Assembly: GCA_903813345.2 (NCBI GenBank)
Contig: CAIIXF020000001.1
Coordinates: 8,432,001 to 8,496,000 of the forward strand
Reading direction: 5' to 3'
DNA length: 64,000 nt
Origin: Owenia fusiformis
Taxonomy: Eukaryota
Shown in pieces: positions 1,924 through 51,400 of the stretch (its first letter is position 1; the number at the start of each line of letters is the position of its first letter). A model generated the notes under the pieces. It had not been told where the DNA came from and did not search any database. It saw only the letters and a program-made list of their open reading frames with translations. The translations under genes were made by a program, and so were the position numbers.

Positions 1924-3230
1924 TCAAGTAATAATTTAATACAATTCAAGTACAAGCTTCATTAAATACAAGTAGTTCTTTCATATAGATATATGTACTA
2001 TGTATATAAATCATTTTTAAATAGTAATAATAACAATTATTACATGATCTTACTGACTCCATTCACACCCATTCATTACATTCGTGCATGCATTCATTCA
2101 CCCACTATTCATACATTGACTATGACACAAATTTGTAAAATAAGAATTTATTTGTGTATTCATAAAAGTCTATATAAAGCATGTATGTCTACACCCTTTT
2201 GATCAAGCAGCTTAACACTGTTCAAATATATTCTCAGATAATTGGAAAATTTGAAAAAGTAAGGTAATTCTTTTTCTAAAAAAGATTTGTGTATGACATA
2301 TTTCATAATTAATATGCACAGATTTAGTTCTGCACCTTTTTCTATATTCCCGATAATACCTAATAAAATATCATTTTCAGTTAGATTTAATTCTTTATTT
2401 AGTTTTAGTTTCCACCATTCAATAAATTGCTTCCATATATCTTTTGTTATTCTACACTTTACCAGCATGTGCTCCATGGTATGAGTATCATCACACCATG
2501 GACATTTGTCTGTCTGTGAAATGTTCATCATTTTTAATTTACGGTTGCACACTAGTGTATTCGTAAGTATTTTGTACTGAAAGCTCCATATTTTAGTTTC
2601 ATATGTAACCTTTTTTGCAAGTGTATAATAGTATTTCATGTCATTTTCATTTACATTGTTATTTTGTATCCACTTTGTTAGTGATGTGGGTTTCTCGATT
2701 TCTTTTTCAAGGATTTTGTTGTAAATAGCTTTACACGACAATTGACTAGGGTTAGGAACATTTTTCTTTGAGGGGTTGTTTTTCAATATGCAATTTTTAA
2801 GAGTTTTCCATTTTTTGGGAATAGCACTGAGTATGCTGGCATACTTTAAAAAGTCTATAGGAATGTTGAATTTTCGTTCAAGTTCTGTCAGGGATAAATA
2901 GTTATTATCTCTGTCTAGGATGTCATAAATTGTTGCAATACCTGCTTGATGCCATGTTTTATAGTACACCATTTTATTATTGACTAGAATGTTTTTATTA
3001 TTCCATATAACTTCATCTTTAACATCATTCCAATTATTGACATCAAATTGTTAATATAGTGTAGAGGAGATTTTTGATATGTTTAAATTGAGAAAAACAA
3101 GATCCTCTCTTAAGAAATGAGCCTAACATTTTTTTAAAGTGCCAAGGTGGGGTCCTAATCAATAATTTTTCAAAGAGTTAATTTGATATTTTACTATCAT
3201 GGGGACTTAACTTGAAAGAAAACATTGTAT
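1520..3230. mobile_element. Degenerate fold-back/MITE (inverted arms ~1520-1670 and ~3085-3230) split by a LINE insertion
   Basis: tgttttctttcaagtgaagtacccatgat...aatatcaa is imperfectly reverse-complementary to ttgatattttactatcatggggacttaacttgaaagaaaaca. Exact termini are not resolved. Confidence 0.55.
1887..3044 (-). mobile_element. 5'-truncated L1/Tx1-like LINE (ORF2 C-terminal zf-RVT region) in the 5' intron of NRPS paralog 1
   Basis: ORF 2160-2972 contains FQYKIL...CPWC..HTMEHMLVKC. Poly(A) tail is the T-run at ~1886-1921. 13-bp TSD aaattgttaatat at 1874-1886 and 3045-3057. Confidence 0.9.
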
Positions 3231-15622: not shown

Positions 15623-18456
15623 TTAGTTCAATGGCTTTATCTGTGCTGCAACCACGAAGTCATCTTCCACCTTTGTGAAGTATGCTTTCCCCTCATATTC
15701 AAAGTTCTTGGCAGGAACTCTAACAATTGTCTTCCATCCAAACTCTAATTCAGCTAGTGCCTGCAAATAGGAAGCAAAAAAACATATCATAGATCAATTA
15801 CTACTTAGCAGTAGTAATAATTAGTAGTTGATAAGTAAGTTCACATTTCACGACCCAGCAAAGGAAGTTGACTTTCAGCTGGTTCACTCTAGACAACATA
15901 ATATCAAACGATTCAAAAGATCCCAAAGTTAGCTGTCCTTAATTTGAATGTATTACTTACTATAGTCACGGGGTGTGTGTTGACTGTTATAAGACCAGTG
16001 TATCCCAAACTCCTTGCAACCCGCATTGTTTCCACCTCGAGCATATGTATCAGTCGGATATTCTCAGCATCAGAAACGTATTTTGCAGTGGCCACCGAAC
16101 CTGACCACAACCACTTACCACCAAGCTCAGCAATTGCCTTCCTTGCTGGTTCCTCAGCTTGCATTACCAAAGCAGCTATAGGATACAGTAATTCTGGTTC
16201 AACTGCAACTTCGTAGTCGAGTTCAGAGCTGAGTAGCATTCCAGCAGCAACAACTTTACCAGTGACTCTGTTTACGACTCCCATGGAAATATTATCTTGT
16301 TCCAAAATTGGCCAGAATGTTTTCAGATGATGCATGTATTGCTCAAATGTACATCCAACATCAATGATCAGCAAATCTTTTCTAATGAAGGCATCAGAGA
16401 GAACGACCATCGCTTGGTCTTTATAGTTAGAATTTGTACAGATGTTAACCAATTCATATGTATCAGTGTCTATGACAGACGCTGGGACATTGTTGTCTTT
16501 CTTTTGCCTCAGTGTTTCAATAAGATCATGAAGGCTGGATGAGCCTAGAAAATCTGCAACCGTTAGCAAGACTCCTTTCGATTTCATATCAGCTATTGTG
16601 TACATAGCGTTTGCTGATGTCCCTCCATTCTGAAAGAAATCTTTTGTGATTATGAGTTTGGTCACCGGAATTTCGATGACCTTTGCAACAGACTCCAATA
16701 CCTTCATACCAAACTCGTCTTGTTTATATTGATGTAGTATTGTATTACTTTCTACGACTGTTTCATTGAACTTGTTTTCGTACATTGCCTTCAATGCCAT
16801 TCGGTCAATTTTCCCGGCAATCGCTTGAATAGGAAATTTATCAATTTTCTCAAAGTGCGGCATCATGTACGTTGGAAGATATTGTGAGCAGAATTCAGTA
16901 ACTGATTCAACGCTGGCTTCTTTTTCCTCGATAGCAGTGTAGAAAGCTACTAACGTTATCATACCACTGACAGAGTTATGAACTATAGTTGTGGCCTGGT
17001 CAACTCCAGGATGACTCTGCATGACACTTTCAAGTTCTGAGACATTTACTCTGTATCCCCGGATTTTCACCTGAAAATCTCTTCGACCTTGGTAGAATAT
17101 TCTCCCATCTACTATCTTTCCAAAATCTCCCACTCTGAACAGAAGTTCATGGCCTTGGCTTGGTAGGACTGTATTTTTGACAAACACGTTCATTCTGCTT
17201 GTATCAGTATAGCCAGTTGATAAGCAAACTCCACTGCATAACACTTCTCCAATCTCACCCATGGGTACTGGCTCTAACTTCTCATCAACGATATACACAT
17301 TCGTATTGTATATTGGGACTCCAATCGACATGATGTGATCATTCGTTTTTTTCTCAGCATCTTCCAACGATGAGAATATATCGATGGTAGTATCGCCCGC
17401 TGTCTCCGTGCAGCCATAACCGTTAATGAGGGTGTGTCCATCAGAGAAATAACTGAAGAAATCTCGAACGAGAACACTTGGTACAACCTCACCTCCGAGG
17501 ATGATAAATTTGAGATGGGACAAGCGGTTCTTGATGGAATGCATATTGAGACAGACCAACATATTTCGCAAAAGGACCGGAACACAGGCTAGTCTGGTGA
17601 TGTTATATTGCTCAATTGCTTTGATCAACATCTCGGGATCTTGTTTCACCGCCTGTGGTAAAATAATCAAGGGTCGTCCCTTCAGTAACCATGTGTACAT
17701 TTCCCTAATTGAATCCACAAACAACAAGTCTAACAAGGCACATCCAGTCTCATCTTGCTTGAATGGGGTTTTATCCCAGTAATAATTGACTATGTTCAGC
17801 TGACTGTCATGGGTCAGCTTCACTCCTTTTGGGGTGCCGGTGCTTCCCGAGGTGAACAGTGTGCAAATCAGTGGATTTTCCCCCGTAAGACCATCTTTCA
17901 TTGGGGCAAAATCGGCATCAGTCAAATTGGTATCTTCAACAGTTGTACAAGAGTCAGCTTCAATTTCATCAAGTATCGAGTCTATGTTAAACACAGGGAC
18001 TGCTTGGATGGTCGGATTGTTTGCATTAGATCCACATGCAAATATGCAAATCGGTTTGCCTTCATCCAATATGTACTGCAAACGTTTTGGAGGAAAGACA
18101 GAACTCATAGGGACATATGCACCTCCAAGTTTCAGTATGCTGATTAAGGCGATCACTCGTCTTGCACTGGGTTCCATAAACACGGATATTGTTTTGTCTG
18201 GAGAATTCAACACTTCTATACCGTTATCCACCATTCGTTTCAGTACAATTCGAGCAACCATATTCGCCCTTTTGTTGAGCCGTCCAAATGTCAGAGTTTC
18301 CTCCCCAAATCGAACAGCCATTTGATTTTCAATTGGTTTCATTCCATTTGATGTTTCAATTGTGCCTTTAACAGTGTTTTCAAATACTTTATGAATGAAG
18401 TCACCCGCGTTATCATTCTCCTCTCCCTTTAGGATACTAAGTTGTCGTTCAGACAT
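15623..18456 (-). CDS. ebony: Ebony-like NRPS paralog 2 (A-T-GNAT-like amine-condensing domain), 877 aa, two coding exons
   Basis: Exon 18456-15961 (832 codons; acceptor tttgcag|ATG, donor ATA|GTAAGT) plus exon 15760-15623 (ALAELEFGWK...IKPLN*). Motifs: A3 LFTSGSTGTPKGV, A4 FVDSIREMY, A5 NGYGCTE, A7 FRVGDFG, A8 GRRDFQVKIRGYRV, A10 AGKIDR, phosphopantetheine site DFFQNGGTS, C-terminal GYTGLITVNTHPVT. Size and architecture match the Ebony family. Confidence 0.92.
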
Positions 18457-19202
18457 CTGCAAACAAAAGAATGTTAAAATATTAGAATATATTGGTTAAT
18501 CCATTCACACATAGCTAGGCAAGGTGTGTCCGATTCCAGCCAATCCGTACACAGTATTTCATTATAACTGACTGCATTATATAACCAATGACGACACCCA
18601 ATGTGATTCGTTGAATGGTTGTCACGGTGACAACTTGACTCTACAGATTGAAATTGATGCTTTGCAAACTTGACCCTTGCAAAAAGTTTCATTGAAAATA
18701 TGTTCTTTCGGTAGTGATTTCGTATCTTTTAGAAAAATTGAAATGTGTGAAAATAATTTAAGCCCGAGACTTGATGCATTGTGGCTGATTCATTCCACTC
18801 AGCAGAAGTTGTTATGATTTGTAAACAACAATTAAGAGGAATGAATCAGTCCACAAGGACTAAATCCTTAAACTAATTAATCATAATATTATAAATTATT
18901 TGCATTGTTTGAACCGTTTCTACATGTGGATATGACATCCTTAATGTGAAACGCACTCATATTGTACAAAACATTTTTTGTGCGTCAAATATTCAAACCT
19001 AAAAATAAGCAACCAAAACTACACAGTACACTATTATATGGAAAAAATACATTCATGGTTTTCATATTAAGTTATATATAATATATATAATTTGTAAATG
19101 AAGAAACATGTTGGAATAATTTCTCTGCCTTTGTTTCGTTTTTTTATTATATTTAGTACGTACGCATTTTGACTTTTATACACATAATATATATATAATA
19201 TA

Positions 19203-20042
19203 CAGGGTGTTATTTTCGAAAGATTGTCAATTGGCTGAAAACCCCTAAATTAAAATGAATACATGCTTACTGCAAAGCACTTCGATCAAATAAAACTAAT
19301 TTATCTGGATTACATACATATATACAGGGTGTTCCATATGTATTTGTACATAAAATCATACATGTAGCATTGCCACCCTATCATGCTGAATATCATATTT
19401 GTTCCTTATGGAAAGTTACATAACATTGCAAGTTTCAGAATCCATGGAAGTCCCTGAAAAAGATACAAGGTATCAAAGTTAGTGGGTACAGGTCATTTCG
19501 AAGAGAATTTCTGGTCATTTTGAGGGCAATTAAAAGGGAAAATTAAGTTTCTGTATTGCACATTTTTTAGCAGTTGCCATCATGTCAGAGTTCAGTTCAC
19601 ACAAGTGTGATAGTTATTCACAAAGACATATAGATAGATTTCATGCAGTGGCTTATAGGGAGATTAGGGACCGTGGTGCGACCTCTATCACTAAAAATGG
19701 GTATGAGACAAAGTGAACAGATCACCGGATTGAGTCCAAAAATAACCAGAAGTTACCCTCGAAATGACCCCGTACCAACAAACTTTGATACCTTGTATTT
19801 TTTTAGGGACACCCATGGATTCTGAAACTTTGCAATGTTATGTAACTTTCCATAAGGAACAAAGTGATACATAACACGATAGGGTGGCAATGCTACATGT
19901 ATGAGTTTATGGGGGGTGCATACATATGAAACACCCTGTATACATCTGTATCCAGACAAATTATTTGAAGGGCTTTGCAGTTAGCATGTATTCATTTTAA
20001 TTTAGCGTTTTCCAGTCAATTGACAATCTTTCGAAAATAACA
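19203..20042. mobile_element. Tc1/mariner-type MITE (outer element; right terminus eroded)
   Basis: ta|cagggtgttattttcgaaagattgtcaattg mirrors caattgacaatctttcgaaaataaca. Arms are ~110 bp. Confidence 0.7.
19325..19938. mobile_element. Tc1/mariner-type MITE nested at the centre of the previous element
   Basis: TA|CAGGGTGTT...AACACCCTG|TA with ~190-bp imperfect inverted arms. Confidence 0.85.
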
Positions 20043-20869
20043 TGTCAGAAAAGCATCAAAATACAAGTGGCAACGCATTTTATTGGCCAAACCACAAGCA
20101 ATCCAAAATATACAAACGTTAGACTGCATCCGAAATATGAATGTAATTTTTCTCTATAATATGCTGCCGTGGAATTCGGATTTTAATATAAAGTTACTCA
20201 CCTTTACAAAGTTTATTCTCACAAATCCTAACAGTATTCAAAGTTAGCTCAAACCCAAAATACGTATGTAATTATGAAACAATCACAAAGCAATGTACAA
20301 TGTTCAAAGTAGTGGTTAACAATATCATATGTACATATTATTACGTAAGGTTAGTATATATGATAAAAGTGTACACTGCAGGTTTAGGTTCAGTGACCAG
20401 TTCATCAAGAAGGGTGAAAGAAAGTTGAACATCATAGTCATTCCAGTTTTTCTTTTTCTTTGCCAACCACACCATTTTCCTGCATTTGTTATTCTACAAT
20501 TGACTTGCAATGTCAGCCATTATAAATCTCCGAGTCTGTCGTGTCAATGACAAAACTTCCGAGGGAGGGTGTATTTCAAATTCTAAATGGGACTAAATGA
20601 TTATCTCAACCATTATCAGGTGATGTTATAAAGGTGCCAGATAATAATTGCATAAAATATTCACATATACGATAAAGTGGAAGGCGATCATTCTGATAGT
20701 AACATTTTCTGTTTGGCTAAGATTTAATTACCCTGCGTGCAGAGTCTAGTTAAACTACAATTAGACGAAGCTCTCTTTTAAGAAGTGAAGTCAAACGAAT
20801 GCAAAGGGTAAGATTTAATTTAAGCCCATCACGACTCTTTGAATTGTGAAATATATTAAGCACGAGGGT

Positions 20870-21148
20870 CAGGGGCGTAGCCAGCTTTCAGGCAGGGGGG
20901 GTGCGATCGCCGAAAATTTTTCAGTTTTCGGTCAGGGAGGGTGCGATTTTGCCATAAGCAACACAAAAAATTAAGATTTCTTTTGAATTTTACAAAAATT
21001 GATGCAACTTCCTTCAAAATTGAGCTAGAAGCTTCAAATAAAAAGCATTTTTAAAGCTCTTTTCTACCTCTATCCAATAGTCATATTTTCAAAGGTTATG
21101 GGGGGGGGTGCGATCGCACCCATCGCACCCCCCCTGGCTACGCCCATG
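20870..21148. mobile_element. hAT-like MITE (second copy at 24059-24338)
   Basis: Termini CAGGGGCGTAGCCAG / CTGGCTACGCCCATG with flanking direct repeat AGGGT. Confidence 0.75.
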
Positions 21149-21352
21149 AGGGTCTTGTATGAGACTGAATGGTAGTACCAGAGAGCCCGTGATTGAGGGC
21201 GGTAGCACATTGTACTTGCTCGCTAACTATTTTCCTTATTCAATGATTATCATTCTTACCAAAAAACCTTTTGGGCCCGGGTTTTTGGGCCTCCGTACAA
21301 TGCTAATTACATCCTTATTCCGAACACTCTCCCCTTTGCTATGGTACATGTA

Positions 21353-22002
21353 CAGGGTGTCCCGAAAGTATGACCCCCCCCCCCCCCCTAGGCAGACATA
21401 TACCAATGTTGTCATAGTATGTGTCATATATCATTTTAAAGCTTACCCAAAGTTACATTGATTCGCCAAGTATCATGGTTCAACTCTCAAATGTGAAAAA
21501 ATTACAGGCATTTCAAAATTTAGAGTTTGGTCAAAATTAAGTTCAATTTTCCACCAAATCGATAGTCAATGTGTCCTCTCGGGCCATTTTAACAGCAGCA
21601 ATTTTTTTCAGGTCGGATGGATATTGAGTTGGAAAAAGAGAATGGTAAGGGTAGAAAATCTAAGGAAACTCTTCTAAAGTGCCTCAACAGGTTTTAAGAG
21701 GGTTATAAAATTCCACACCCCTATTTGAAGGGCTTTTAAGGTCATAACTGAAAAGAATTGCTTGTGTTAACATGGTCAAGGGGGGACTCATTGACTAGTA
21801 ATGTGATGTAAAATTGAACTTTATTTTGACAAAACACCAACTTTTAAAATGACTGTAACTTTTTCCCATTTGGGAATTAAACCATGATACTTGGCAAATC
21901 AATGTAACTTTGGATAAGCTTTAAAATGATATATGACACATACTATGAGGACAGTGGAATATGTCTGCCTAGGGGGGGGGGTCATACTTTCGGGACACCC
22001 TG
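21353..22002. mobile_element. Tc1/mariner-type MITE (copies at 24543-25190 and ~54952-55556)
   Basis: TA|CAGGGTGTCCCGAAAGTATGACCCC...GGTCATACTTTCGGGACACCCTG|TA with long inverted arms. Confidence 0.88.
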
Positions 22003-22177
22003 TATATTCAAAACCTGGGACAAATAGCGTCATTCCGAGGCTTTTTGACTCTCACTTGTTCTACTATTACAAACAGGCGTCGGACAGGTGTATGGGTGTA
22101 ATGCATGCTTCAGGGCCGTCGGTAAATTTTCATAATATTCATATGAAGCCCTTGAGGTAAATAAACAACTGACAGAT

Positions 22178-22762
22178 ATGAATAAACAATCATGGCTCAC
22201 GCACATCAATGATGTACTTAAATATATTTACAATGGTACTTCACCGAACTATTTAAACTTAAAACCAAGAGAAATTAAGAAATTACTGGAAAATAGATAC
22301 ATACAATTTTGGGAAACTAAAATAAAATCAAATAATGGTAAATTGAGGTTTTATAAGATAATAAAAGCAAAATGGAACAAGGAACCCTACTTGGATTTAA
22401 TCAAAAATGAAATAGACAGAAATAACTTGACAAAGCTAAGAATTAGCGCACATAAATTAGAAATCGAAACAGGTCGTTACACAAAACCAATTACCCCTAT
22501 TGAAGAAAGAAAATGTTTAATGTGTAACAAGAAAACCGGTTCAGAATGTCATTACCTATTAGAATGCAATAAGTTAAAAGATGTTCGGTCAAGTTACATG
22601 GATAAAATAAAAAAACACTGTCAAAATTTAGAAAACATGAATAACGTGGAACATAAATTAATGTTTCTATTTAATTCAGAGGGAATAATATTAAATATAC
22701 TAGCAAAATATATATCTAATATTTTTATCGAGAGAGAAAAAAACACGAAATGCATCCAATAA
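22178..22762 (+). mobile_element. 3' fragment of a non-LTR retrotransposon ORF2 (Cys/His C-terminal region)
   Basis: LTKLRISAHKLEIETGRY...ERKCLMC...ECHYLLEC is typical of invertebrate LINE ORF2 tails. Confidence 0.8.
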
Positions 22763-22811: not shown

Positions 22812-23182
22812 TATGGTCATTTGATTATCTTTACTCAATAGAATTTTTAATTGGACTATAGCACTGTTCCACAACTGGATGACTCTAACTGCAGTTAGCT
22901 TCATTCAAGATGGTTGCCGAGATTCTTTCGTTTTCGATAAACCTCCGATTTCAGCTAAACTAAGTTGAATCTTGATTCCAAAAGTTTCGCCATGCAAATT
23001 AATAAAACTATGATTGTATTCAACCACAAATGAATGCTCTAACACCCATAATATTAGAGAATTTTAAAGAAAACGACTTCACTTAGAATGACTCTAACTG
23101 AAGTTGATGATCTACGCCATCATGACGTCATCATCAACTTCAGTTAGAGTCATTCTAAGTGAAGCCGTTTTCTTTAAAATTC
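22812..23182. repeat. 371-bp copy of 28934-29304 joining the two duplicated blocks
   Basis: Identical sequence at offset 6122. Junction microhomologies ta and attc. Confidence 0.92.
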
Positions 23183-26001
23183 ATTTTAATTTAGCGTTTT
23201 CCAGTCAATTGACAATCTTTCGAAAATAACATGTCAGAAAAGCATCAAAATACAAGTGGCAACGCATTTTATTGGCCAAACCACAAGCAATCCAAAATAT
23301 ACAAACGTTAGACTGCATCCGAAATATGAATGTAATTTTTCTCTATAATATGCTGCCGTGGAATTCGGATTTTAATATAAAGTTACTCACCTTTACAAAG
23401 TTTATTCTCACAAATCCTAACAGTATTCAAAGTTAGCTCAAACCCAAAATACGTATGTAATTATGAAACAATCACAAAGCAATGTACAATGTTCAAAGTA
23501 GTGGTTAACAATATCATATGTACATATTATTACGTAAGGTTAGTATATATGATAAAAGTGTACACTGCAGGTTTAGGTTCAGTGACCAGTTCATCAAGAA
23601 GGGTGAAAGAAAGTTGAACATCATAGTCATTCCAGTTTTTCTTTTTCTTTGCCAACCACACCATTTTCCTGCATTTGTTATTCTACAATTGACTTGCAAT
23701 GTCAGCCATTATAAATCTCCGAGTCTGTCGTGTCAATGACAAAACTTCCGAGGGAGGGTGTATTTCAAATTCTAAATGGGACTAAATGATTATCTCAACC
23801 ATTATCAGGTGATGTTATAAAGGTGCCAGATAATAATTGCATAAAATATTCACATATACGATAAAGTGGAAGGCGATCATTCTGATAGTAACATTTTCTG
23901 TTTGGCTAAGATTTAATTACCCTGCGTGCAGAGTCTAGTTAAACTACAATTAGACGAAGCTCTCTTTTAAGAAGTGAAGTCAAACGAATGCAAAGGGTAA
24001 GATTTAATTTAAGCCCATCACGACTCTTTGAATTGTGAAATATATTAAGCACGAGGGTCAGGGGCGTAGCCAGCTTTCAGGCAGGGGGGGTGCGATCGCC
24101 GAAAATTTTTCAGTTTTCGGTCAGGGAGGGTGCGATTTTGCCATAAGCAACACAAAAAATTAAGATTTCTTTTGAATTTTACAAAAATTGATGCAACTTC
24201 CTTCAAAATTGAGCTAGAAGCTTCAAATAAAAAGCATTTTTAAAGCTCTTTTCTACCTCTATCCAATAGTCATATTTTCAAAGGTTATGGGGGGGGGGTG
24301 CGATCGCACCCATCGCACCCCCCCTGGCTACGCCCATGAGGGTCTTGTATGAGACTGAATGGTAGTACCAGAGAGCCCGTGATTGAGGGCGGTAGCACAT
24401 TGTACTTGCTCGCTAACTATTTTCCTTATTCAATGATTATCATTCTTACCAAAAAACCTTTTGGGCCCGGGTTTTTGGGCCTCCGTACAATGCTAATTAC
24501 ATCCTTATTCCGAACACTCTCCCCTTTGCTATGGTACATGTACAGGGTGTCCCGAAAGTATGACCCCCCCCCCCCCTAGGCAGACATATACCAATGTTGT
24601 CATAGTATGTGTCATATATCATTTTAAAGCTTACCCAAAGTTACATTGATTCGCCAAGTATCATGGTTCAACTCTCAAATGTGAAAAAATTACAGGCATT
24701 TCAAAATTTAGAGTTTGGTCAAAATTAAGTTCAATTTTCCACCAAATCGATAGTCAATGTGTCCTCTCGGGCCATTTTAACAGCAGCAATTTTTTTCAGG
24801 TCGGATGGATATTGAGTTGGAAAAAGAGAATGGTAAGGGTAGAAAATCTAAGGAAACTCTTCTAAAGTGCCTCAACAGGTTTTAAGAGGGTTATAAAATT
24901 CCACACCCCTATTTGAAGGGCTTTTAAGGTCATAACTGAAAAGAATTGCTTGTGTTAACATGGTCAAGGGGGGACTCATTGACTAGTAATGTGATGTAAA
25001 ATTGAACTTTATTTTGACAAAACACCAACTTTTAAAATGACTGTAACTTTTTCCCATTTGGGAATTAAACCATGATACTTGGCAAATCAATGTAACTTTG
25101 GATAAGCTTTAAAATGATATATGACACATACTATGAGGACAGTGGAATATGTCTGCCTAGGGGGGGGGGTCATACTTTCGGGACACCCTGTATATTCAAA
25201 ACCTGGGACAAATAGCGTCATTCCGAGGCTTTTTGACTCTCACTTGTTCTACTATTACAAACAGGCGTCGGACAGGTGTATGGGTGTAATGCATGCTTCA
25301 GGGCCGTCGGTAAATTTTCATAATATTCATATGAAGCCCTTGAGGTAAATAAACAACTGACAGATATGAATAAACAATCATGGCTCACGCACATCAATGA
25401 TGTACTTAAATATATTTACAATGGTACTTCACCGAACTATTTAAACTTAAAACCAAGAGAAATTAAGAAATTACTGGAAAATAGATACATACAATTTTGG
25501 GAAACTAAAATAAAATCAAATAATGGTAAATTGAGGTTTTATAAGATAATAAAAGCAAAATGGAACAAGGAACCCTACTTGGATTTAATCAAAAATGAAA
25601 TAGACAGAAATAACTTGACAAAGCTAAGAATTAGCGCACATAAATTAGAAATCGAAACAGGTCGTTACACAAAACCAATTACCCCTATTGAAGAAAGAAA
25701 ATGTTTAATGTGTAACAAGAAAACCGGTTCAGAATGTCATTACCTATTAGAATGCAATAAGTTAAAAGATGTTCGGTCAAGTTACATGGATAAAATAAAA
25801 AAACACTGTCAAAATTTAGAAAACATGAATAACGTGGAACATAAATTAATGTTTCTATTTAATTCAGAGGGAATAATATTAAATATACTAGCAAAATATA
25901 TATCTAATATTTTTATCGAGAGAGAAAAAAACACGAAATGCATCCAATAAAATCTTGCAATGATCAAGCACCCTTTGATTAGTTAATATACTATATAGAT
26001 A
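23179..26001. repeat. Segmental duplication copy 2
   Basis: Mirrors 19990-22813, including identical ORFs (e.g. 25366-25950 equals 22178-22762). Confidence 0.95.
25366..25950 (+). mobile_element. Duplicate copy of the LINE ORF2 3' fragment
   Basis: Identical translation to 22178-22762. Confidence 0.8.
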
Positions 26002-26439
26002 ATTAGTTAAGCTTTTTCATTTTTTTTCTGTTTAAGCTGTACACTTTGCCCAAATGTGGGATACAAGTATAATAAAGCTCATAATAATATGATGATGGGG
26101 TGGTGACCTGATTCACAACCGACAAAACACAATCAAACACAACTAGTACCAAATTAACACAATACAAATTAATAAAATACAATCTGGCACAACCAACTAA
26201 AAACCAACATAACACAACTAGGCACAATCTGTTGTACGACCAATAAAACACGACCAAATAGGGACACGGACCATGTTATGTTCCATGTAAAGAACATAAC
26301 ATGGATTACCACCATACTCATGAGTTCGAACATCAGCAGCTATTATATGATTGACTTTGACACATGATCAGATAGTAAAATAGAGAAGGTCTACAACAGG
26401 ACTGGGATGTACAAGTTTGTTAATTTAACAATGCTACTT

Positions 26440-26492
26440 TAAAAAGATGGCAGCACTTCTGTATATTATATATGGGCGTAACCCGGAAGTAA
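26440..26492 (+). promoter_or_regulatory. Putative GGACT core promoter (YY1-like AAGATGGC, ETS motif CCGGAAGT)
   Basis: The motifs lie ~80-125 bp upstream of the ATG at 26568. Motif evidence only. Confidence 0.4.
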
Positions 26493-26567
26493 TAACAATT
26501 GACCTTGACATGTTTCCAGATGAACAAAATACAAAATCAATTTAGAATTTTCTCCAATATCTCCAAA

Positions 26568-26750
26568 ATGCAGAGGATATTTGTTTATGGTACCTTGAAA
26601 AAAGGTCAGCCTAACCATAAGTTCATCGCTGATGCTGAGAATGGAAGTTGTATTTTTATAGGAACTGGGAGAACAGTAGACAAGTGGCCACTTGTAATTG
26701 CTTCAAAGTACAACATTCCCTTTTTACTGGACAATAAAGGGCATGGGAAG
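26568..26750 (+). CDS. GGACT: Gamma-glutamylamine cyclotransferase, shared coding exon 1 (61 aa; alternative in-frame ATG at 26520)
   Basis: MQRIFVYGTLKKGQPNH...WPLVIASKYNIPFLL..GHGK carries the GGCT/AIG2-fold FVYGTL motif. Phase-0 donor AAG|GTAAAG at 26751. Confidence 0.92.
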
Positions 26751-26879
26751 GTAAAGAATCTGTTATGGTCTAAAAGAAAAATATTCTCTACGTGTTTGAT
26801 AAATACACTGTAACATGCAATTGATCATTTTGAATGAACTTTAGCAATTGTAAAAATGGACATAAAGAAACTGCACATG

Positions 26880-28053
26880 CTATCTATTGCAAGACTTATG
26901 CCTACCACAACCGTCGCCATGTAAATCAGTGTTTTTAAGTAGCGCAAGGATCCTACCATGACCGTGGTAGTGTTATCGTGTAAGCCTGGTATAACCGTGA
27001 CAGGCTGGTATAACCGTGACAATGCTGTATTATATTGCAAGGCCTGTCATGATCCTGGAAGTGTTATCTGGAAGCCTGGCGCGACCGTAGCCTTTATTGT
27101 GGTTTATAAGCGAACGTGAATATTAATGTATAGTAGTTATTTTGATTTTGACATGATTAAGGTAGTTAAACCCCATGATCATAGTATTAAACTGTTTAAT
27201 TGTAATGACGATCACTTAAAATTATTAAGGATATTCCTGGCATTAATGTCATACATATTTACTAGTCATTGCAATACATTATAACGGTCATAGTAGGACT
27301 AAGCCTAAAGTTCTACATTACCACCCTCATACCTGGCCTTGCAATACTATATTACATTGTCACGGTCATACCAGGCTTTGCGATCCCATAATACATCGTC
27401 ATGGTCATGCCAGGTTTTGAAATACACATTCTCACGGTCACTTATAGCAATTATAAATTTCTACATTACCACTCTCATACCCGAACTTGGAATACTATAT
27501 CACATTGCCACGGCGGTCTTACCAAGCCTTGCAATACTATATTACATTGTCACGGCCATGCCAGGCCTTGCAGTACTATATTACATTGCCACGGTCATGC
27601 CAGGCTTTGCAATACACATTGTCACGGTTATAGCAGTCCTAATCGTAAATTTCTACATTTCCACTCTCATACCTGAACTTGCAATACTATATTACTATAC
27701 ATTGTCACGGCCATGCCAGGCCTTGCAGTACTATATTACATTGCCACGGTCATGCCAGGCTTTGCAATACACATTGTCACGGTTATAGCAGTCCTAATCG
27801 TAAATTTCTACATTACCACTCTCATACCTGAACTTGCAATAATATATTACATTGTCACGGCCATGCCAAGCCTTGCAGAACTATATTACATTGTCATGGT
27901 CATGGCAGGCATTGCAATATAATACAGCATTGTCGCGGTTATACCAGGCTTTCACGATAACATTACCACGGTCATGGCAGGATCCTTGCGCTACTTAAAA
28001 ACACTGAATAACATGGTGACGGTTACGCCAGGCGTTAGTCTTGCAACAGATAG
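26880..28053. mobile_element. Fold-back element in the GGACT intron with an internal ~39-bp tandem array
   Basis: ~170-bp imperfect inverted arms (gtgtttttaagtagcgcaaggatcct / aggatccttgcgctacttaaaaacac). Internal repeats of cttgcaatactatattacattgtcacggccatgccagg at ~27335-27920. Confidence 0.8.
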
Positions 28054-28983
28054 GGTCTCAGAAACTGATAGAGCCCATGATGGAAATAACAAAGGGCAAT
28101 ACCAAAGTCAGCTGATTCATAATTTTATTGAGTTCTTATCAAACAAATATTTGGCCACCATATTGAATGATACTAACTGCATTTAGAGTCATCCAGCTGT
28201 GGAACAGTGAGTTTGGCTTACTCGAGTCTCTAGCTCTACTTGGCTAGAGGGGATTTCATTTGGAATACTGTGAACTCTATTTGAAAAAAGCTGGCCGTGA
28301 TGTCATAAATTTATTGAATATTTTAAAAATCTCCAGATAAATAAATCATTAATCAAACCGGACCCAGCTCGGCTCCTTGATGAGATTAGGTGCATTCATG
28401 CACCCTCTGGGTCTCTGAGGATCGTGTTGGCCCCAGCCTCTAATGCAAGTCCTTACGACAATCCAACGCATTAGAGGCGGTGTTCACCGTCTATGATGAG
28501 ATATGACATGATTTCATCAGAATTTCGTCTAAAATTAAAACAAAATGGCTCCAAGAAAAATGGCGATGTTCGAAAACTGGACGAAATGTCGTTAACGCCT
28601 GACATTAGTAACTGGCTGTAAATTTTAAGTTAGCAATCCAGAAGATGTGAACTAATACACTGATCACTTTATGTGTGTTTTGGAATTTTTGGTGAGGTAA
28701 TAAGACCAAAACTCACAATTCAAATTGTGATATGGAAAAATGGCGGACATATGATTTCAAATTTTATGATGACGACATTACATGACCAGTTGTTCATGCA
28801 GGAATATATCTGTACTGGAAGGCCACGATACAGTGGCCTAAGAAGGTAAAGTTTGGCTATCATATGTGTGGCCTCTTATATTTTGATGTTAGGCCATGAA
28901 TGAATGTTTCTATTTTTTCATATACTGTTGCATTATGGTCATTTGATTATCTTTACTCAATAGAATTTTTAATTGGACTATAG

Positions 28984-29501
28984 CACTGTTCCACAACTGG
29001 ATGACTCTAACTGCAGTTAGCTTCATTCAAGATGGTTGCCGAGATTCTTTCGTTTTCGATAAACCTCCGATTTCAGCTAAACTAAGTTGAATCTTGATTC
29101 CAAAAGTTTCGCCATGCAAATTAATAAAACTATGATTGTATTCAACCACAAATGAATGCTCTAACACCCATAATATTAGAGAATTTTAAAGAAAACGACT
29201 TCACTTAGAATGACTCTAACTGAAGTTGATGATCTACGCCATCATGACGTCATCATCAACTTCAGTTAGAGTCATTCTAAGTGAAGCCGTTTTCTTTAAA
29301 ATTCTCCAATATCGCGGTTGTTTGAGCATTTATTTGTGGTTATTTACCATCGTAGCTTTATTAATTTGCATGGCGAAACATTTGGAATCCAGATTCAACT
29401 TATTTTAGCCGAAATCGGAGGTTTATCGAAAACGAAATGATCTCGGCAACCATCTTGAATGAAGCTAACTGCAGTTAGAGTCATCCAGTTGTGGAACAGT
29501 G
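28984..29501. mobile_element. Near-perfect palindromic MITE with CACTG...CAGTG termini and 5-bp TSD (Transib-like)
   Basis: The whole element folds about ~29243. TATAG lies at 28979-28983 and 29502-29506. A related isolated end occurs at ~28172-28209. Confidence 0.88.
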
Positions 29502-30037
29502 TATAGAGTCTGAAAAAACATTGGATTGGATTGTAAAACTGAAAGCCATAGTACAGTGTAGTATTCCAGTTCCAGGTGACCATGGTGTTCCGCTTCCGTA
29601 TCAGTTCTCAGTCTAATTGAAAGCCAATGGTCAAGAACTTTATCAATAGAAACACTAACAATAATGTGTATCTTCGAAGTATCTTCTGTCTTCTTCGAAA
29701 TTCTATCAGCTATTGTATCAAAACCATCTTACTTGTGACCTCAAATGACCTTTGAATTACCCTGAGCGCAGAGGTTAGCTAAAAGTAATGAAAACTTCAA
29801 AAGTGCGAACAAAGCTTCAGTTATACATGTACGTACAGTATTGAATAATTGACCAACAACTGATCCAAATCAGAGAGTTTTGAATTCAGTACCTTTTGAA
29901 GAATTTTCACTAAGAAGATCGTTATTTTATATAGCTTATATATGACCTTTTCAGAGCGGCCATCCATGACCTCAATAATGTTGACCTTTTACAATCTCAG
30001 ATTTGAATAAGGTCCAATTGCTTACTTTTGATTCCAG

Positions 30038-30316
30038 AGAGTCACTGGTGAAGTCTACAGTGTCAATCCACAACTAAAGGCAATTTTGGACAAACTTGAA
30101 ATCAAATATCAAGAAATAGAACTAGACGTAGAGCTAGACAATCAACAAGAAGAAACTAAATGTTCATGTTATGTGATTAACAATTTTAAACAGGAGCTGA
30201 TGGAACTTGATCTACTGGAGAGCTACATCGATGTTGAACTACGATTTGTCAGACTTCAGGATAGGGAACCCAATGACTTTTATGATTATATAACTGATGT
30301 TCGCAATTTACCTTAA
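30038..30316 (+). CDS. GGACT: GGACT terminal exon 2a (gives a 153-aa isoform)
   Basis: Acceptor cttttgattccag|AGA, phase 0. Translates RVTGEVYSVNPQLKAILDKLE...CYVINNFKQEL...LESY...*. AATAAA downstream at ~30450 and ~30571. Confidence 0.8.
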   Translation, partial: RVTGEVYSVNPQLKAILDKLEIKYQEIELDVELDNQQEETKCSCYVINNFKQELMELDLLESYIDVELRFVRLQDREPNDFYDYITDVRNLP

Positions 30317-31245
30317 ACTAAAATTTCCAACTGGAGATTTGTAGTAATGTTTCCCTCATAATGACATGAATGAGTGCCCATGCATAGTTTTTAGACGACC
30401 CTTCGAAATTAGAGCGCTACAAGATGTTATCTGAGAGTCTGGAGCCATCAATAAAGCAGATAAAAGAATATCTGGTGTGCATTAATAGTGGACAGCAATT
30501 AGCAAATTGATTTTAATGCCTCCTTAAATGCTCTACAAAGGTTGTGTTATAACACATTTATGCACTAACTAATAAATTATTCTATTTAACCGAAAATTAG
30601 GAATTGAGCTTTGATAGTATTTTGTGATTGTCATAAAAAGTTAACATCACATGAATATTTATAATGACTAAATGTTTATTTATATGTGGGTATTGGTAGT
30701 ATTGTTTTATATTAAAAGAAACTCAAAAAACTATTTTGCACCTTCTTCATGGTGTTTATCAAATTATTTAGTACATTTACTAATATAGTAGTAATATAGG
30801 AAATATACATAGAACCTGAACTGCATAAATAATTAATCCTTTTGTTTTTTTAATTTTTTATTATAATATTCGATTAAATTGGACTAAAAGGATAACACAT
30901 TCTCTCATTCACTCCTTTCCTTTATGCAAAAGATAAGCAAAAAATGTCATTAAGTCATCAGTTTTGTCATGGGGTTTCTCTTGAAAGTCCATGGTTTTGT
31001 GAAGTGTTTGATGAATTGAATAATGAACATACCCTGTTTTTTATGTCAATTACAGCTGCAAAGGTAAACTAAAGGCCCTCTCTATCAGTTTAGTCAATCT
31101 GGAAAACTTTGACAAGATATGGAACACTATTGTCTCTGGAATACCATGAATATCACAGACAAGTAGTTACTGTATCATTCACGAAACCTTCTTGTTGGCA
31201 GGCACCTACAGATTCTTAAGCGAGAAAATACATTTTACTTTACAG

Positions 31246-31641
31246 AATGTCCTTGGAGAAATTTACGAAGTTGACTCAAAGATGGCAGCATTTCTGGATG
31301 AATTTGAGGATTGTCCAAAGTGGTACCAACGTGACCCCATTACTGTTGAACTTTTAAATGAACCTGATAACTCAGTCAGTATCAAAGATCAAGCCATGGA
31401 GGTAGAATCTGAAGTAAATAAAATAACAGGAACATCCACCCAAGAATGCATAGTGTATAAACTAAAGGCTTTCAAGGATGAACTTTCAAAGTTACCCACC
31501 ATCATGGATTATGATGGTTTCAAAGAACCTGTTTATGATAGTAAGGCAGACAATGAAATACCATATGGTATATACAACAATTATGATCCTATTGGTGATA
31601 CAGTAGATTCTGAAAAATTGAAGAAGTTGGGGATTGTATAA
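31246..31641 (+). CDS. GGACT: GGACT terminal exon 2b (gives a 192-aa isoform)
   Basis: Acceptor ttttactttacag|AAT, phase 0. NVLGEIYEVDSKMAAFLDEFEDCPKWYQR is the canonical catalytic segment. AATAAA at ~31859. Confidence 0.88.
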   Translation, partial: NVLGEIYEVDSKMAAFLDEFEDCPKWYQRDPITVELLNEPDNSVSIKDQAMEVESEVNKITGTSTQECIVYKLKAFKDELSKLPTIMDYDGFKEPVYDSKADNEIPYGIYNNYDPIGDTVDSEKLKKLGIV

Positions 31642-34600
31642 GAGGAGGAAATACTCCATAATTCATAGATGAACATATTTCTATGACCTAACCTCGAGAG
31701 GTTCATTTTGATTTGGAGATCTGTTCATCTTTGAAATCTGGAGTGTTCCCCTCCTCTTGGACTGTATGAAAAAAGTATGACAGCAAATGATGAAGAGTGC
31801 AAAATTGTGGAAGCATTCTTTGATTTTAAAGCAACTTTCATAATTTTTCAAAGTATACAATAAATCAGATTATAAATGGTCCATTTTGTATTTATGATTC
31901 CAAATGGAGCTATATACACAGAGATACATGTATATACAGACTATATTCATAAGATTTCTTAACCCTCGATTATCTGTTGCTGAATGTTTTGAAGTATTTA
32001 AAAATTGTATTAAACAAGAACTTTAAAGGGCCACTGACTTTAATGTAATATATTAAAGTATTAATAACGCATAGACATTAGAAGTAGCAAATAGAGTTCA
32101 CTTTATACAGCAGATAAATAAAATATAATATTATTTATATGTGAACAATTATAATCACATTTGTCCATCCTTCAAAGATCGAGCATCACTGTCCAAGTCC
32201 AAGGTCATGGAATAAACTGAAATACCATTGGATCAAGGAGGGTATTTGTCAGATTCAGATAGGATTTCTAGTTTAAATTCTTAACAACAGTTGTATACTA
32301 TTAAAATTTTCACATTCCATTAATTTAGTGAAGTTGATTGAATTCCATTATCTCCACAAATAAGTTTTACTGACATCCACTTCTTCAAAACTATTTCCAT
32401 TCATGTATACAATATTTTTAACTTGATAGAAAATTGGTGTGACAAAAAACGCTTGAGCAAATTGTAAAACTTGTAAACCTTACTCCATTGTCCTTTGTTG
32501 CCTCTTTAATTGTTGTTTATTTTAGCAGCATACTTTGTATATTATTTAGACCTCAGTTATACCTTTTACTTCAATTTTTGAGCCCTTTGGCCTGCATGTT
32601 TATATACTTTACATGTATTAGTTTTTCAGAACTATATACAGTTTGAAGTACGATATTACATATGTATGTTAAAACTACATGTACTCTACAGTAACAGGGA
32701 CCATTGTCACAACAAAATGGAGCAAGCAGATATTAGTAGAGAAATCTTAGAACATTTTCTGTGATTTTTGGTTTGAACATACACCGATACTTCAATGCAT
32801 TTACCTCAAAGACAATCAAAACTGTGATAAATGCAAGATGAGCAATCAACAGGGTAAAAAAAACTTTCAGTTATAATACAAATTGATTACTTTAAATTGT
32901 TTATGAAATATTATGATTTTATTTTGGTCATGTATGAATAGATTACTGCATAACATGCATATACAGCATTGACTGTCATTGTATAGTTTATTTTACTAAA
33001 GGTTGATAAGCCCAAGTGGGTTGGGTTGTATTTTTATAACAATTTTCTTTCATATTGTATTAATTTTATTGTAACTATTTACCACTGCAATGAAATAAAA
33101 TAAAATTGAACTAAATTTTCTATTAGCTGTCAATTTTTTAAATTTTAGAATGACCTAAGGAATAAGAAATGTCCAAAATTAGAATTTAAAAAGGAGATAT
33201 CCATTTTTTCAAAACTTTAAAAGAATACAAGCCATGCCTGAAAAGGAATGCTATGAGCAAAATATTTGTAGAATTCTGAAAATTTTCAATCAGTTACCCC
33301 CAGCCCCATCCATCCCTAGGCTTGTTGCCATCCTTAGTTTCTCCTTTTAAGCACTTTATTAACTTCAGTTCATTTTGAAAGATGGCTCTGCTACCTGGAA
33401 TAATGTGGTGAATCCCATCAAAACATCATTTATCTTTTGACAAAGATGCCATCTTTATAACATATAACCAGGATTGAGAATAAAAACAACCCTTCATGTC
33501 ACTCTCTTTACTCTCTTTATACTCATCTCCCAATCTTGAAAACGACAGACCTTTGGAAATCCAAAATGCTCTTATGATCAAAGCTAATCTGGGTCTTTTA
33601 GTTTGATGTGTTCTGATTACGATGTTTTTAATTCATATTCCTTTCCTTATTCCTTTTTTTAAACATTTTTAAAAGCTTTTAGAAGGCTTTTTGAGCATGC
33701 CAAAGTACCTTTTACTTCCAATGAGGAGGGGGACTTGGTCGCACATATTAGCTGTTAAAATATATTGTATTTGTAACATCTCTCTGATATGAAAGAAGGA
33801 ATACACTGGTTTAACAGTATGTCTAGCACTAAGATAATATGCAATAATAATTTTAGCTTTGAGAGTCGTTTTGTATGGATTTTTCAGTATGGGTGCAAGT
33901 ATGGCTGGGTGCAAGTATGGGTCATGGATATCATGTCACTCAGATTTAATTTTAAATAAAAAGGAAATCAAAAAATGAGTAGTTTTAAGATGGATCAATC
34001 TTTTAGTTTAGAATCATCATCACTAAAAGAAAAGCTCTTGAATATGTTGGATAATCTCATTAACAACTTTTATTCAACTTTATTTGTTCATTCCCATTTG
34101 TATCAGAATATATAGAAATCATAATTCTATGGAATGTTTGTCAAGTGGTTAAGTGGCTGGATCTCATGTATGCAGTTTCAATAAATGCTTGTGTGTGGGA
34201 TGACATGTATGTACAGATATTCATTGATTTGTAGACACAATTATTGTCCTATCCTGGTTTATTTTATGTTACACCATCATAATACATGTATGCTGATATA
34301 TTGAATGTATTTTGATATGTATATTGATATTTTGAAATACCCCTCCTACTTTTATTTGAGATGGAACATTTTAGATGCTCCAAAAATATGTTTGTTAAAT
34401 GATTGGTGACAATCTTTCCCCCCATATTTTTCAGTTGAAACACCCCCTTTAGTGTTTAGTGACAACATGAAAACTACCTCAATGAAATAGAACATATTGT
34501 AAGTCTAATTCTCATAAAAAGACTTTTGAATCAAAAAGTAACTGAGCAAAAATTTATATGTCAGGATTTTGTTTTAAAAGATAAAAAATCCATACTGTTT

Positions 34601-48400: not shown

Positions 48401-51400
48401 GTTAAAAAATCTATAGATTAGACAATTATCTTTCATGCTTTCAAATTTCTAACTGACCAGTCCATATGCTGAGCTGCGCTCTTCTTCAGTTGTGATGTCA
48501 GCTACATATGCAAACACAACACTGAATGTTACTGCGAAGATTCCAGATATTGAGATCATAGCAAAGTACCACCTAAAAAACAAAGTTAGAAAATATTACT
48601 ATAATGTCATACATTTGCAGTATTTTAGAACAAGCCATATTTTAATTTGCATAATACATAATACAATATTTATCATAGGGGGATCTTTAAGTGTTCATAA
48701 CCAAACGGGTTACTTCTGAGCTAAGGTAAATATGCAGGAAATACAGAGTAGAAGGACAATATCATCCAATTGTGCCAGACTAGGCATATGTTACAAGAAG
48801 GTCTCTAAGTATTAATAAAATAAAACAAGAATGTAAAGATAAAGGTCAATATGGAGTTGGCAATTACTTTGAATTCGATATCAGGTTATAAGATACATGT
48901 TACAAGTCATAATATACATTTGAGCTGCAAATAATTTTCATGTTTTTATGTTGATGTAATAAAAGGGTTTATTCCCATTTCGCCACTTCCCATTTTGCCC
49001 CTTCCCATTTCGCCCCTCATTTATTCCCATTTCGCTCCTTCCCAATTGGCTCCTTTCCCATTTCGCCCCTTTCCCATTTTGCCCCTTTGCCGTTTCACCC
49101 CTTTCCCGTGTTGCCCCCTTCCCATATCGTCCCTTTAGCTTTCCCTTATCGCCCCTTCCCATGTCGCCCCTTCTCCATTTCACCCCTTCCCATTTCGCCC
49201 CTTCCCATCTCGCCCCTTCCCATTTCGCCTCACATGAACTAAGGTCAAGGTCATTCCAAGGTCAAAGGTCAGTATCTAGGTATTTTACTTTTTAATAAAT
49301 GAGGGGCGAAATGGGAAGGGGCGAAATGGAAATGAACGAGGGGCGAAATGGGAAAGGGGCCAATTGGGAAGGGGCGAAATGGGAATAAATGAGGGGCGAA
49401 ATGGGAAGGGGCCAATTGGGAAGGGGCGAAATGGGAAGGGGCGAAGGGGGAATGAGGGGCGAAATGGGAAGGGGGCATAATGGGACGGGGCCGAAATGGA
49501 AGAGGGGCGAAATGGGAAAGGGGCAATTTGGGAAAGGGGCAAAATGGGAAGGGGCGAAATGGGTAGGGGCCAAATGGGAAGGGGCCAAATGGGAATAAAT
49601 GAGGGGCGAAATGGGAAGGGGCAAAGTGGGAAGGGGCGAAATGGGAAGACACCAATAAAAGGTATTTAAAATATTCATATGCTCTTAGCTTGGAAAAGGA
49701 TCATATTTATTAAACATTTTTGAATAAACCTGACTCATATTAAATGAAACATGATTATTCTACAGCTCCTTAGAGGAAAGTAGTGAAAGGCATGTTTACT
49801 TACCATGGGCTAAACTTCATGAGTGGTATAGGGGCACAAGTGAATGTGACAGTAAGCAGGAGAAATGGCTTGCGGCCCCATACATCTGATAATGCTCCTA
49901 TTAAAGGGGCACTCAGAAATGATAAGATTCCCTGAAAATACAGAAAAATGTACTTTACATGTGCATTTAAACATTTGGACGGGATTTGGTGAAGCCATCT
50001 ATTCAACAATCTCTGTTATCGAGTCTGTCAGTTAGTCAGACATACATGTATTTGCTTCATATTATACTATATTATAGGTACCCTTTGCATACATTTGAAA
50101 AAGTCTCAAAATAAACGGGAATTTTTAATAGGTATAGAACTTCTTTGAGTATAAGCTGTTTCACAAACTACTGTTTTAATTTCAAAATGGTCACAATATT
50201 TTTGGGGGATTTCTAGTTGTTAGTGGTATATAATACCATATTCATTCGCTTAAATCTCTGGCCACAGTCCCCATCTACTTGTAAAGTTGAGGTATGTTGG
50301 GAGTCATAATGCCTTGAAGAAAAACCTTCACCTTATTGTGACTTTATTTGCATATAAAAATCAATAGTGCAAAATGACAGGTGTATGCCTATGCACTATG
50401 CAGGTACAAGTATATTAATTGGATAAGGGTGAATGTACTAAATGCATATTTTGTTTTTTAATAACTAACTGAATTATGATGGCAAAGTAAGGTCACAGAG
50501 ACTTTAGTTTTTTCATATTTTCCTTCATTGTATGTATTACCAGCATCCATAAAGCTACTCTATATAGCTAGATGTAATTTCCTCCAATTTTAACCAACAT
50601 AACCATCTATACATGAGACTGATTATAAAATAGAGGAAAATAGGAGTTAGACCCATTACATAAACAGTCAATGGGCATATTGAATTGATTCAATTAATTA
50701 ATTTTGCAATGAAATCATTAACTCATATCAGCTGAACAAACTTCCCTTATGAATTCCATCCAAAAGTTTCTTGACATTTTTGAACACATTTGACCTTAAC
50801 ACTGAAGTCACAAGGGGTATATCTCTAAAAAAAAGAAAATTGGAAAAAGTTCATATTTTGAAGGGTTCACTTTTTTTTAAAGATAGGTTCACAGACACAA
50901 GTGTTTGTATCTACAGTGCTGTTATTAGTGCCAATGTACTCCCCATGTACTACACACTATACTGTACCCTTATATCAATCATACTGTCTGTTTAATATCA
51001 AATTAAAGAATGAAAATTAATTAAAAATAAATCATCAATTTGGAGATCAAGAAAGGTTGACAGATTGCCAATTTCATTACATTATTCATATTTAAGTGTA
51101 CTACTCAAATGATGGCCTTCAACATAAGAAGCATATGTTTTAACTGTCAAGGTTTAATACTCACACCACATGAGTAGTCAAGAGCTATTGTTGCCACTAA
51201 TGAGGAGAGTTCAAGAGTCACTTTTAAGCTCTTTTATACTAAGATCATAATTCTCAAGAAAGTTTGAATTAGACCAATAGTGAAACTAAGATAAGGCTAT
51301 AAATTTAGTACATGTGTATGTTGATAAATGATAATGTGTACAGGTACTTACTTTAACACCCTGGACTAAACCATTCATCAGAAATGTGTGATTTTCAAAT

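Follow-up and report, generated by a model that had tools for sequence, protein, structure and literature searches.

The catalytic site of mouse gamma-glutamylaminecyclotransferase (GGACT, or A2LD1) comprises, in the active-site description given in PMC2954230, Tyr7, Gly8, Thr9, Leu10, Ile50, Glu82, Tyr88, Tyr115 and Tyr143, with residues 79–84 and 133–144 forming the cavity wall. Here we describe a GGACT-family gene from Owenia fusiformis that lies in a 64,000-nucleotide stretch of contig CAIIXF020000001.1 (assembly GCA_903813345.2, positions 8,432,001 to 8,496,000 of the forward strand; hereafter the window, within which all positions are counted). At this locus a single exon encoding the N-terminal half of the domain (exon 1) is followed by two homologous exons, 2a and 2b, each encoding a version of the C-terminal half. 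Our favoured reading, to which we attach a probability of about 60%, is that the locus is a single gene with a tandem-duplicated last coding exon and that both copies are used as alternative last exons, giving an isoform a (exon 1 plus 2a) and a second product that carries 2b.

The Owenia gene shares its Pfam family, the GGACT or AIG2-like gamma-glutamylamine cyclotransferases, whose characteristic reaction releases 5-oxoproline from L-gamma-glutamyl amines, with mammalian GGACT (structures 1vkb, 2kl2, 3jub, 3juc and 3jud). Isoform a has the same predicted fold, and the residues of the YGTL loop, Ile50 and Glu82 carry the same numbers as in the mammalian enzyme. The Owenia gene differs in that a phase-0 intron after residue 61 divides the domain, whose C-terminal half comes in two alternative versions—one, 2a, with a shorter loop after the catalytic Glu and the other, 2b, with an internal loop and a tail that are both much longer.

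In its architecture the gene belongs to a known class, that of tandem-duplicated C-terminal exon substitution through alternative last exons. Among the human events of tandem duplicated exon substitution counted by Martinez-Gomez et al. (2022; PMC9741552), 77 of 236 swap C-terminal regions and, by the general description in the same source, the swapped regions tend to avoid ligand-binding residues; set against the class as so described, a swap that carries the catalytic Glu and three pocket tyrosines is somewhat unusual. Neither GGACT nor A2LD1 is present in one of the supplementary files of that paper, and a literature search found no paper on this exon architecture in GGACT.

Judging from its RefSeq proteins, the two-C-half design is already annotated in the brachiopod Lingula anatina, where isoforms X1–X4 (XP_013395288-90, XP_023931735), named ‘gamma-glutamylaminecyclotransferase-like’, come from one gene on one contig. 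These share 66 identical N-terminal residues and then diverge directly after the counterpart of the last residues of Owenia exon 1, X1, X3 and X4 continuing into a C-terminal half of the LDDFE type and X2 into one of the LDLLE type (27% identity over the next 70 residues). Lingula differs from Owenia in that both of its C-terminal halves keep the Pro-containing loop and in that the F-type has further C-terminal splice variants. The LDxLE and LDxFE types also stand side by side in a 340-residue model from Pinctada imbricata (P0005 in our protein set) and a 342-residue model from Tigriopus (P0007), but there every C-terminal half has its own N-terminal half, whereas Owenia has a single one.

Gene anatomy and homology of the exons

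The coding pieces and signals of the Owenia locus are as follows:

26520 to 26567, plus strand: upstream in-frame ATG plus 16 codons, the start of the deposited Owenia protein
26568 to 26750, plus strand: shared coding exon 1, GGACT N-terminal half, 61 codons from ATG 26568, matched by PF06094 and by the N-half profile
26751 to 30037, plus strand: intron from exon 1 to exon 2a, 3287 nt, most of it filled by two inverted-repeat elements
30038 to 30316, plus strand: terminal exon 2a, divergent GGACT C-terminal half, 92 codons and TAA (30314–30316)
30317 to 31245, plus strand: spacer from the 2a stop to the 2b acceptor, 929 nt, without exon-1-like sequence
30450 to 30455, plus strand: AATAAA of exon 2a, the first one past the 2a stop, at a distance of 134 nt
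31246 to 31641, plus strand: terminal exon 2b, canonical GGACT C-terminal half, 131 codons and TAA (31639–31641), unannotated
31859 to 31864, plus strand: AATAAA of exon 2b, the first one past the 2b stop, at a distance of 218 nt

Exon 1 and the terminal exons cover complementary halves of the Pfam GGACT profile (PF06094, gathering cut-off 22.8 bits), exon 1 matching profile positions 1–53 (35.8 bits), exon 2a positions 54–110 (31.9 bits) and exon 2b positions 55–90 (32.4 bits). A profile of the N-terminal half, built from 112 homologues of at most 230 residues with the Owenia protein included, was run unfiltered against the 3543 stop-to-stop pieces of at least 12 residues in the six frames of the window, and its sole match was 26568–26750, at 113.2 bits. 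No second exon 1 was found in the window on either strand: the next match to this profile scored 7.6 bits (E 0.66), the next best tblastn hit with exon 1 had an E of 0.37, and no in-frame ATG occurs in the open frame that precedes the 2b acceptor. The corresponding profile of the C-terminal half (89 homologues, Owenia left out) matches exactly two sites, 2b at 76.3 bits (E 3.3e-22) and 2a at 44.6 bits (E 2.6e-12), and no other site in the window exceeds 5.0 bits. Exons 2a and 2b are 25% identical to each other (E 0.013–0.03); 2b aligns to residues 63–99 of mouse GGACT (2kl2/1vkb, E ~5e-9), and a sequence search with 2a matched no solved structure. The deposited O. fusiformis protein CAH1772779.1 (UniRef100_A0A8J1USM8; P0004 in our set), 169 residues long, corresponds exactly to exon 1 joined to exon 2a and starts at ATG 26520; its exon 1 part is 100% identical.

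The splice sites agree with this division. Exon 1 ends in phase 0, after residue 61, at the donor AAG/GTAAAG (the slash marks the exon boundary), and the acceptors are TTTTGATTCCAG/AG at 30037/30038 for 2a and TTTTACTTTACAG/AA at 31245/31246 for 2b, so that both terminal exons, neighbours on one strand, have usable acceptors and begin in phase 0 at homologous positions. A second AATAAA follows the 2a stop at 30571, and the 929-nt spacer is at once the 3′ untranslated and poly(A) region of 2a and the terminal part of the intron of 2b. Numbered from 26568, exon 1 carries Tyr7-Gly8-Thr9-Leu10 and Ile50, at columns invariant in 90 sequences, and Glu is residue 82 in both 2a (LDKLE) and 2b (LDEFE), again at an invariant column of the homologue alignments. 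The original prediction for this locus, made from the nucleotide sequence, had proposed one phase-0 exon 1 followed by two homologous, intact last exons, each with its own acceptor, stop codon and AATAAA, with Glu82 in both and no separate exon 1 between them; this anatomy is borne out in every part that could be checked.

There are two candidate in-frame starts, 26520 and 26568, of which the upstream one adds 16 residues that have no counterpart in most homologues; AlphaFold2 models this segment with low confidence (predicted local distance difference test, pLDDT, of 51 for residues 1–10). Within the first intron, one inverted-repeat element (26880–28053) is flanked by terminal inverted repeats of 123 nt and contains a 39-nt tandem unit in 13 copies, and the other (28153–29501) combines inverted repeats of 57 nt with a palindrome of 250 nt at 28984–29501 that is near-perfect (92% complementary). 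Both look non-autonomous. Without them, all three exons would fit in ~2.5 kb.

Signs of constraint on both terminal exons

Given how often stops occur locally (0.067 per codon), a run as long as the open frame of 2a (92 codons) has a chance probability of ~1.7e-3 and one as long as that of 2b (131 codons) a probability of ~1.1e-4. We compared both exons with the consensus of 89 full-length homologues, in which 16 columns of the C-terminal half are at least 85% conserved and 79 are not. Exon 2b equals the consensus at 14 of the 16 conserved columns but only 22 of the 79 others (Fisher p 1.2e-5), and exon 2a at 10 of the 16 against 17 of the 79 (Fisher p 1.9e-3). On this sequence evidence, the concentration of matches in conserved columns is the pattern that long-term purifying selection would be expected to leave in both exons.

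The more divergent exon also has relatives. An exhaustive phmmer search with 2a against 1.84 billion representatives returned ten proteins at E ≤1e-3: seven are GGACT sequences, with 33–48% identity to 2a, and the others are the Owenia protein and two giant proteins. The giants were set aside as probably compositional, being rich in Glu and Leu: P0124 (5219 residues) matched in 14 stretches, and in P0126 (3766 residues) Pfam gives PDZ only. When five of the relatives were compared with Pfam, P0127 and P0130 proved to be full length, and P0125, P0128 and P0129 are open reading frames (ORFs) holding the C-terminal half only; these three cover only PF06094 positions 54–113, and the relatives change exon at the same point as Owenia. 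An ESM Atlas search with 2a, which we treat as a lead only, returned GGACT clusters exclusively, with scores up to 0.81.

A maximum-likelihood tree was built from 54 C-terminal halves over 100 columns, the rows being hand-picked from 161 proteins and leaving out P0023, which is truncated, and P0016, which is without the anchor motif. In this tree, 2a forms a clade with P0125, P0128 and P0129 with support of 99/86; because it groups so firmly with other C-terminal halves, 2a does not appear to be a lone decaying copy.

Active-site residues and predicted structure

Exon 1 provides the first five residues of the catalytic site listed for the mouse enzyme, and the terminal exon provides the other four together with most of the cavity. 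Exon 2b has Glu82, Pro85, Tyr88, Arg90 and the equivalents of Tyr115 and Tyr143, including the full E-x-x-P-x-x-Y-x-R loop, and its internal loop and C-terminal tail are both long. Exon 2a retains Glu82 together with equivalents of Tyr88 and Tyr115 and, alone among 15 aligned sequences, shows a three-residue gap after the catalytic Glu; the missing residues include a Pro that is found in 89 of 89 homologues. In the same alignment of 89, 2a has Glu at a column that is Arg in 94% of homologues, Asn at one that is Asp in 93% and, at the equivalent of Tyr143, Phe in place of the Tyr found in 88%. Phe at this last column also occurs in Lingula X2 and in one sea-urchin protein, and the closest relatives of 2a (P0125, P0128 and P0129) are likewise without the loop Pro and Arg but have no deletion.

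The earlier claims that 2a lacks three residues after the Glu, and that 2b is canonical and 2a diverged, hold up here, the gap being seen in two alignments. The suggestion that 2b is the housekeeping form goes beyond the evidence, the only deposited model being the one that uses the divergent 2a.

Structure prediction for isoform a (P0004) gave a model with a pLDDT of 88.8 and a predicted template modelling (pTM) score of 0.83. It superposes on mouse GGACT 1vkb with a template modelling (TM) score of 0.87 and a root-mean-square deviation of 1.7 Å over 145 columns, and also superposes on 3jud, 3juc and 3jub (mouse and human GGACT). The region of the 2a loop is modelled with high confidence (pLDDT 90–97 for residues 91–110), and isoform a is accordingly predicted to have a complete GGACT fold despite its shortened loop.

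Since the swapped half carries Glu82, Tyr88, Tyr115, Tyr143 and most of the cavity residues, a reasonable inference is that the two products would differ on the amine, or leaving-group, side of the pocket. Both products would be enzymes on the reading we favour; it is just as possible that the 2a product is weakened or inactive. That 2a and its relatives without Pro and Arg make up a distinct GGACT subfamily, with a reshaped leaving-group pocket and a different substrate, strikes us as distinctly doubtful; were it so, one promoter and one gamma-glutamyl-binding half would serve two enzymes by way of splicing and polyadenylation.

Proposed mechanism

We propose that the locus would work as one transcription unit, in which exon 1 would supply the gamma-glutamyl-binding YGTL loop and Ile50, and either 2a or 2b would complete the domain with the catalytic Glu82 and the pocket-lining tyrosines. 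On a proximal route, the exon 1 donor would be joined to the acceptor at 30038 and the transcript cleaved after 30450 or 30571, giving the annotated 2a form; this is the route for which a deposited gene model exists. On a distal route, the proximal acceptor would be skipped and the proximal poly(A) signals read through for a further 795 nt, allowing splicing to 31246 and giving the 2b form. Since stop and poly(A) signal are separate for the two terminal exons, selection between them would be a competition of proximal splicing and cleavage with read-through to the distal acceptor, of the alternative-last-exon type. We infer the second junction, 26750 to 31246, from the fact that 2b is intact, constrained and correctly phased, that there is no other N-terminal half for it to join and that Lingula provides a precedent.

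If both junctions are used, an enzyme of about 150–190 residues swaps its whole catalytic half while keeping the half that anchors the substrate, and the gene would offer a small, self-contained natural experiment in which specificity can be related to the leaving-group side of the GGACT pocket. The deposited annotation has a practical effect of its own: as it holds the divergent form and leaves the canonical exon unannotated, proteome-based analyses of orthology and gene families see an atypical GGACT in Owenia.

Alternative explanations

Several observations count against the use of both exons. Searches of proteins of 72–230 residues turned up none that contains 2b, and those of proteins of 108–2000 residues none joining exon 1 to 2b; among the best 120 of 341 matches, P0004 is the sole protein with 100% identity to exon 1, and the next reaches 67%. 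(A word-based search with 2a alone found none among proteins of up to 161 residues, a range above which the 169-residue P0004 lies.) The Owenia gene models come, according to the annotation statistics and pipeline outline in PMC9977687, from a Mikado, Augustus and PASA pipeline that yielded 31,903 transcripts for 26,966 genes, 99.29% of the annotated transcripts having RNA-sequencing (RNA-seq) support; as far as that outline goes, the annotation is rich in RNA-seq data and permits isoforms, yet no 2b isoform is deposited. The conserved-column test would be compatible with the recent death of either exon. The tree gives 2b no settled position and a longer terminal branch than 2a (1.82 vs 1.08), and in approximately unbiased (AU) tests neither a clade of 2a with 2b (p-AU 0.111) nor one uniting the 2a group and the X2 exon of Lingula (p-AU 0.096) was rejected; on these sequences the arrangement may be old or recent, and either inherited in common with that of Lingula or convergent with it.

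The first of these observations would be accounted for if 2b were an unexpressed relic, either a tandem gene copy that has lost its exon 1 or one side of an abandoned two-exon choice, and only the protein joining exon 1 to 2a were made. We consider this unlikely: the missing 2b isoform in an RNA-seq-rich annotation and the long branch, extra loop and odd tail of 2b all speak for it, but 2b has kept its 131-codon frame open, which is improbable at the local stop density (~1.1e-4), and still agrees with the consensus at 14 of the 16 conserved columns (among them Glu82, Pro, Tyr88, Arg and equivalents of Tyr115 and Tyr143); its acceptor is good and lies at the homologous phase-0 site, and it has an AATAAA of its own. 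Nor does the 929-nt spacer hold any trace of a lost exon 1, and the loss would therefore have to be old for exon 1 and yet harmless to 2b. Very improbable, in our view, is a separate transcription unit for 2b, whose first exon would lie outside the window, be too diverged or be non-homologous. Such a unit finds a parallel in two ‘TMTC4 isoform’ models from Callorhinchus milii (P0067 and P0118) that carry a C-terminal GGACT domain, from which it follows that neighbouring genes, TMTC4 in these vertebrate models, can capture GGACT exons in annotations; against it stand the structural considerations in the account of the mouse enzyme in PMC2954230, by which a C-terminal half without the YGTL N-terminal half cannot fold or bind substrate, and the lack of another N-terminal half in the 26.5 kb upstream or the 32 kb downstream on either strand, or, among 143 ORF pieces of 62 residues or more, of any Pfam-domain-bearing plus-strand exon in the vicinity.

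A further possibility concerns 2a and was judged independently of the probabilities assigned to the favoured reading, to a relic 2b and to a separate unit. Here 2a would be a degenerate partner, spliced in but yielding a weakened or inactive protein of GGACT fold, and 2b would encode the real enzyme. The sole post-Glu gap among the 15 aligned sequences, the loss of the invariant Pro and the replacement of Arg, Asp and Tyr at columns conserved in 94%, 93% and 88% of homologues all point that way, set against the retention of Glu82 and of the Tyr88 and Tyr115 equivalents and the confidently modelled loop in a complete GGACT fold. That P0125, P0128 and P0129 are also without the Pro and Arg suggests a maintained subfamily and not decay, and the Phe at the last Tyr column is shared with Lingula X2 and the sea-urchin protein; we therefore regard a degenerate 2a as rather unlikely. 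The use of 2a and 2b as alternative last exons of one gene remains our preferred account of the locus.

Genomic surroundings

The nearest recognisable genes to the GGACT gene, at 15913–18495 and 49803–50015, are both on the minus strand. Pfam searches of the 143 ORF pieces around the locus gave a single sub-threshold match, to MFS_1 (21.2 bits, below the cut-off of 33.4), at 49803–50015 on the minus strand, which may be a transporter exon. Rfam gave no match within 24000–34000, and a scan of the spacer for bacterial-type promoters and terminators found 6 against 5.9 expected, with models that are irrelevant to a eukaryote.

Directly upstream of the GGACT gene, ~19990–22762 and 23179–25950 form a direct duplication with a period of ~3.19 kb, in which blocks of 287–300 nt are 100% identical and each copy has a 208-residue ORF with no Pfam match; the duplication is either very recent or an artefact of assembly. 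Further upstream, two long intronless ORFs lying in tandem on the minus strand, at 1–1476 and 15913–18495, are 90% identical over 487 residues and both carry AMP-binding, AMP-binding_C and PP-binding domains, as in adenylating enzymes of the non-ribosomal peptide synthetase (NRPS)-like or Ebony-like kind; the ORF at 15913–18495 is complete (860 residues) and that at 1–1476 runs off the window. Between these two genes, a 296-residue ORF at 2160–3050 on the minus strand matches zf-RVT at 27.7 bits (cut-off 27.5) and is probably a retroelement remnant.

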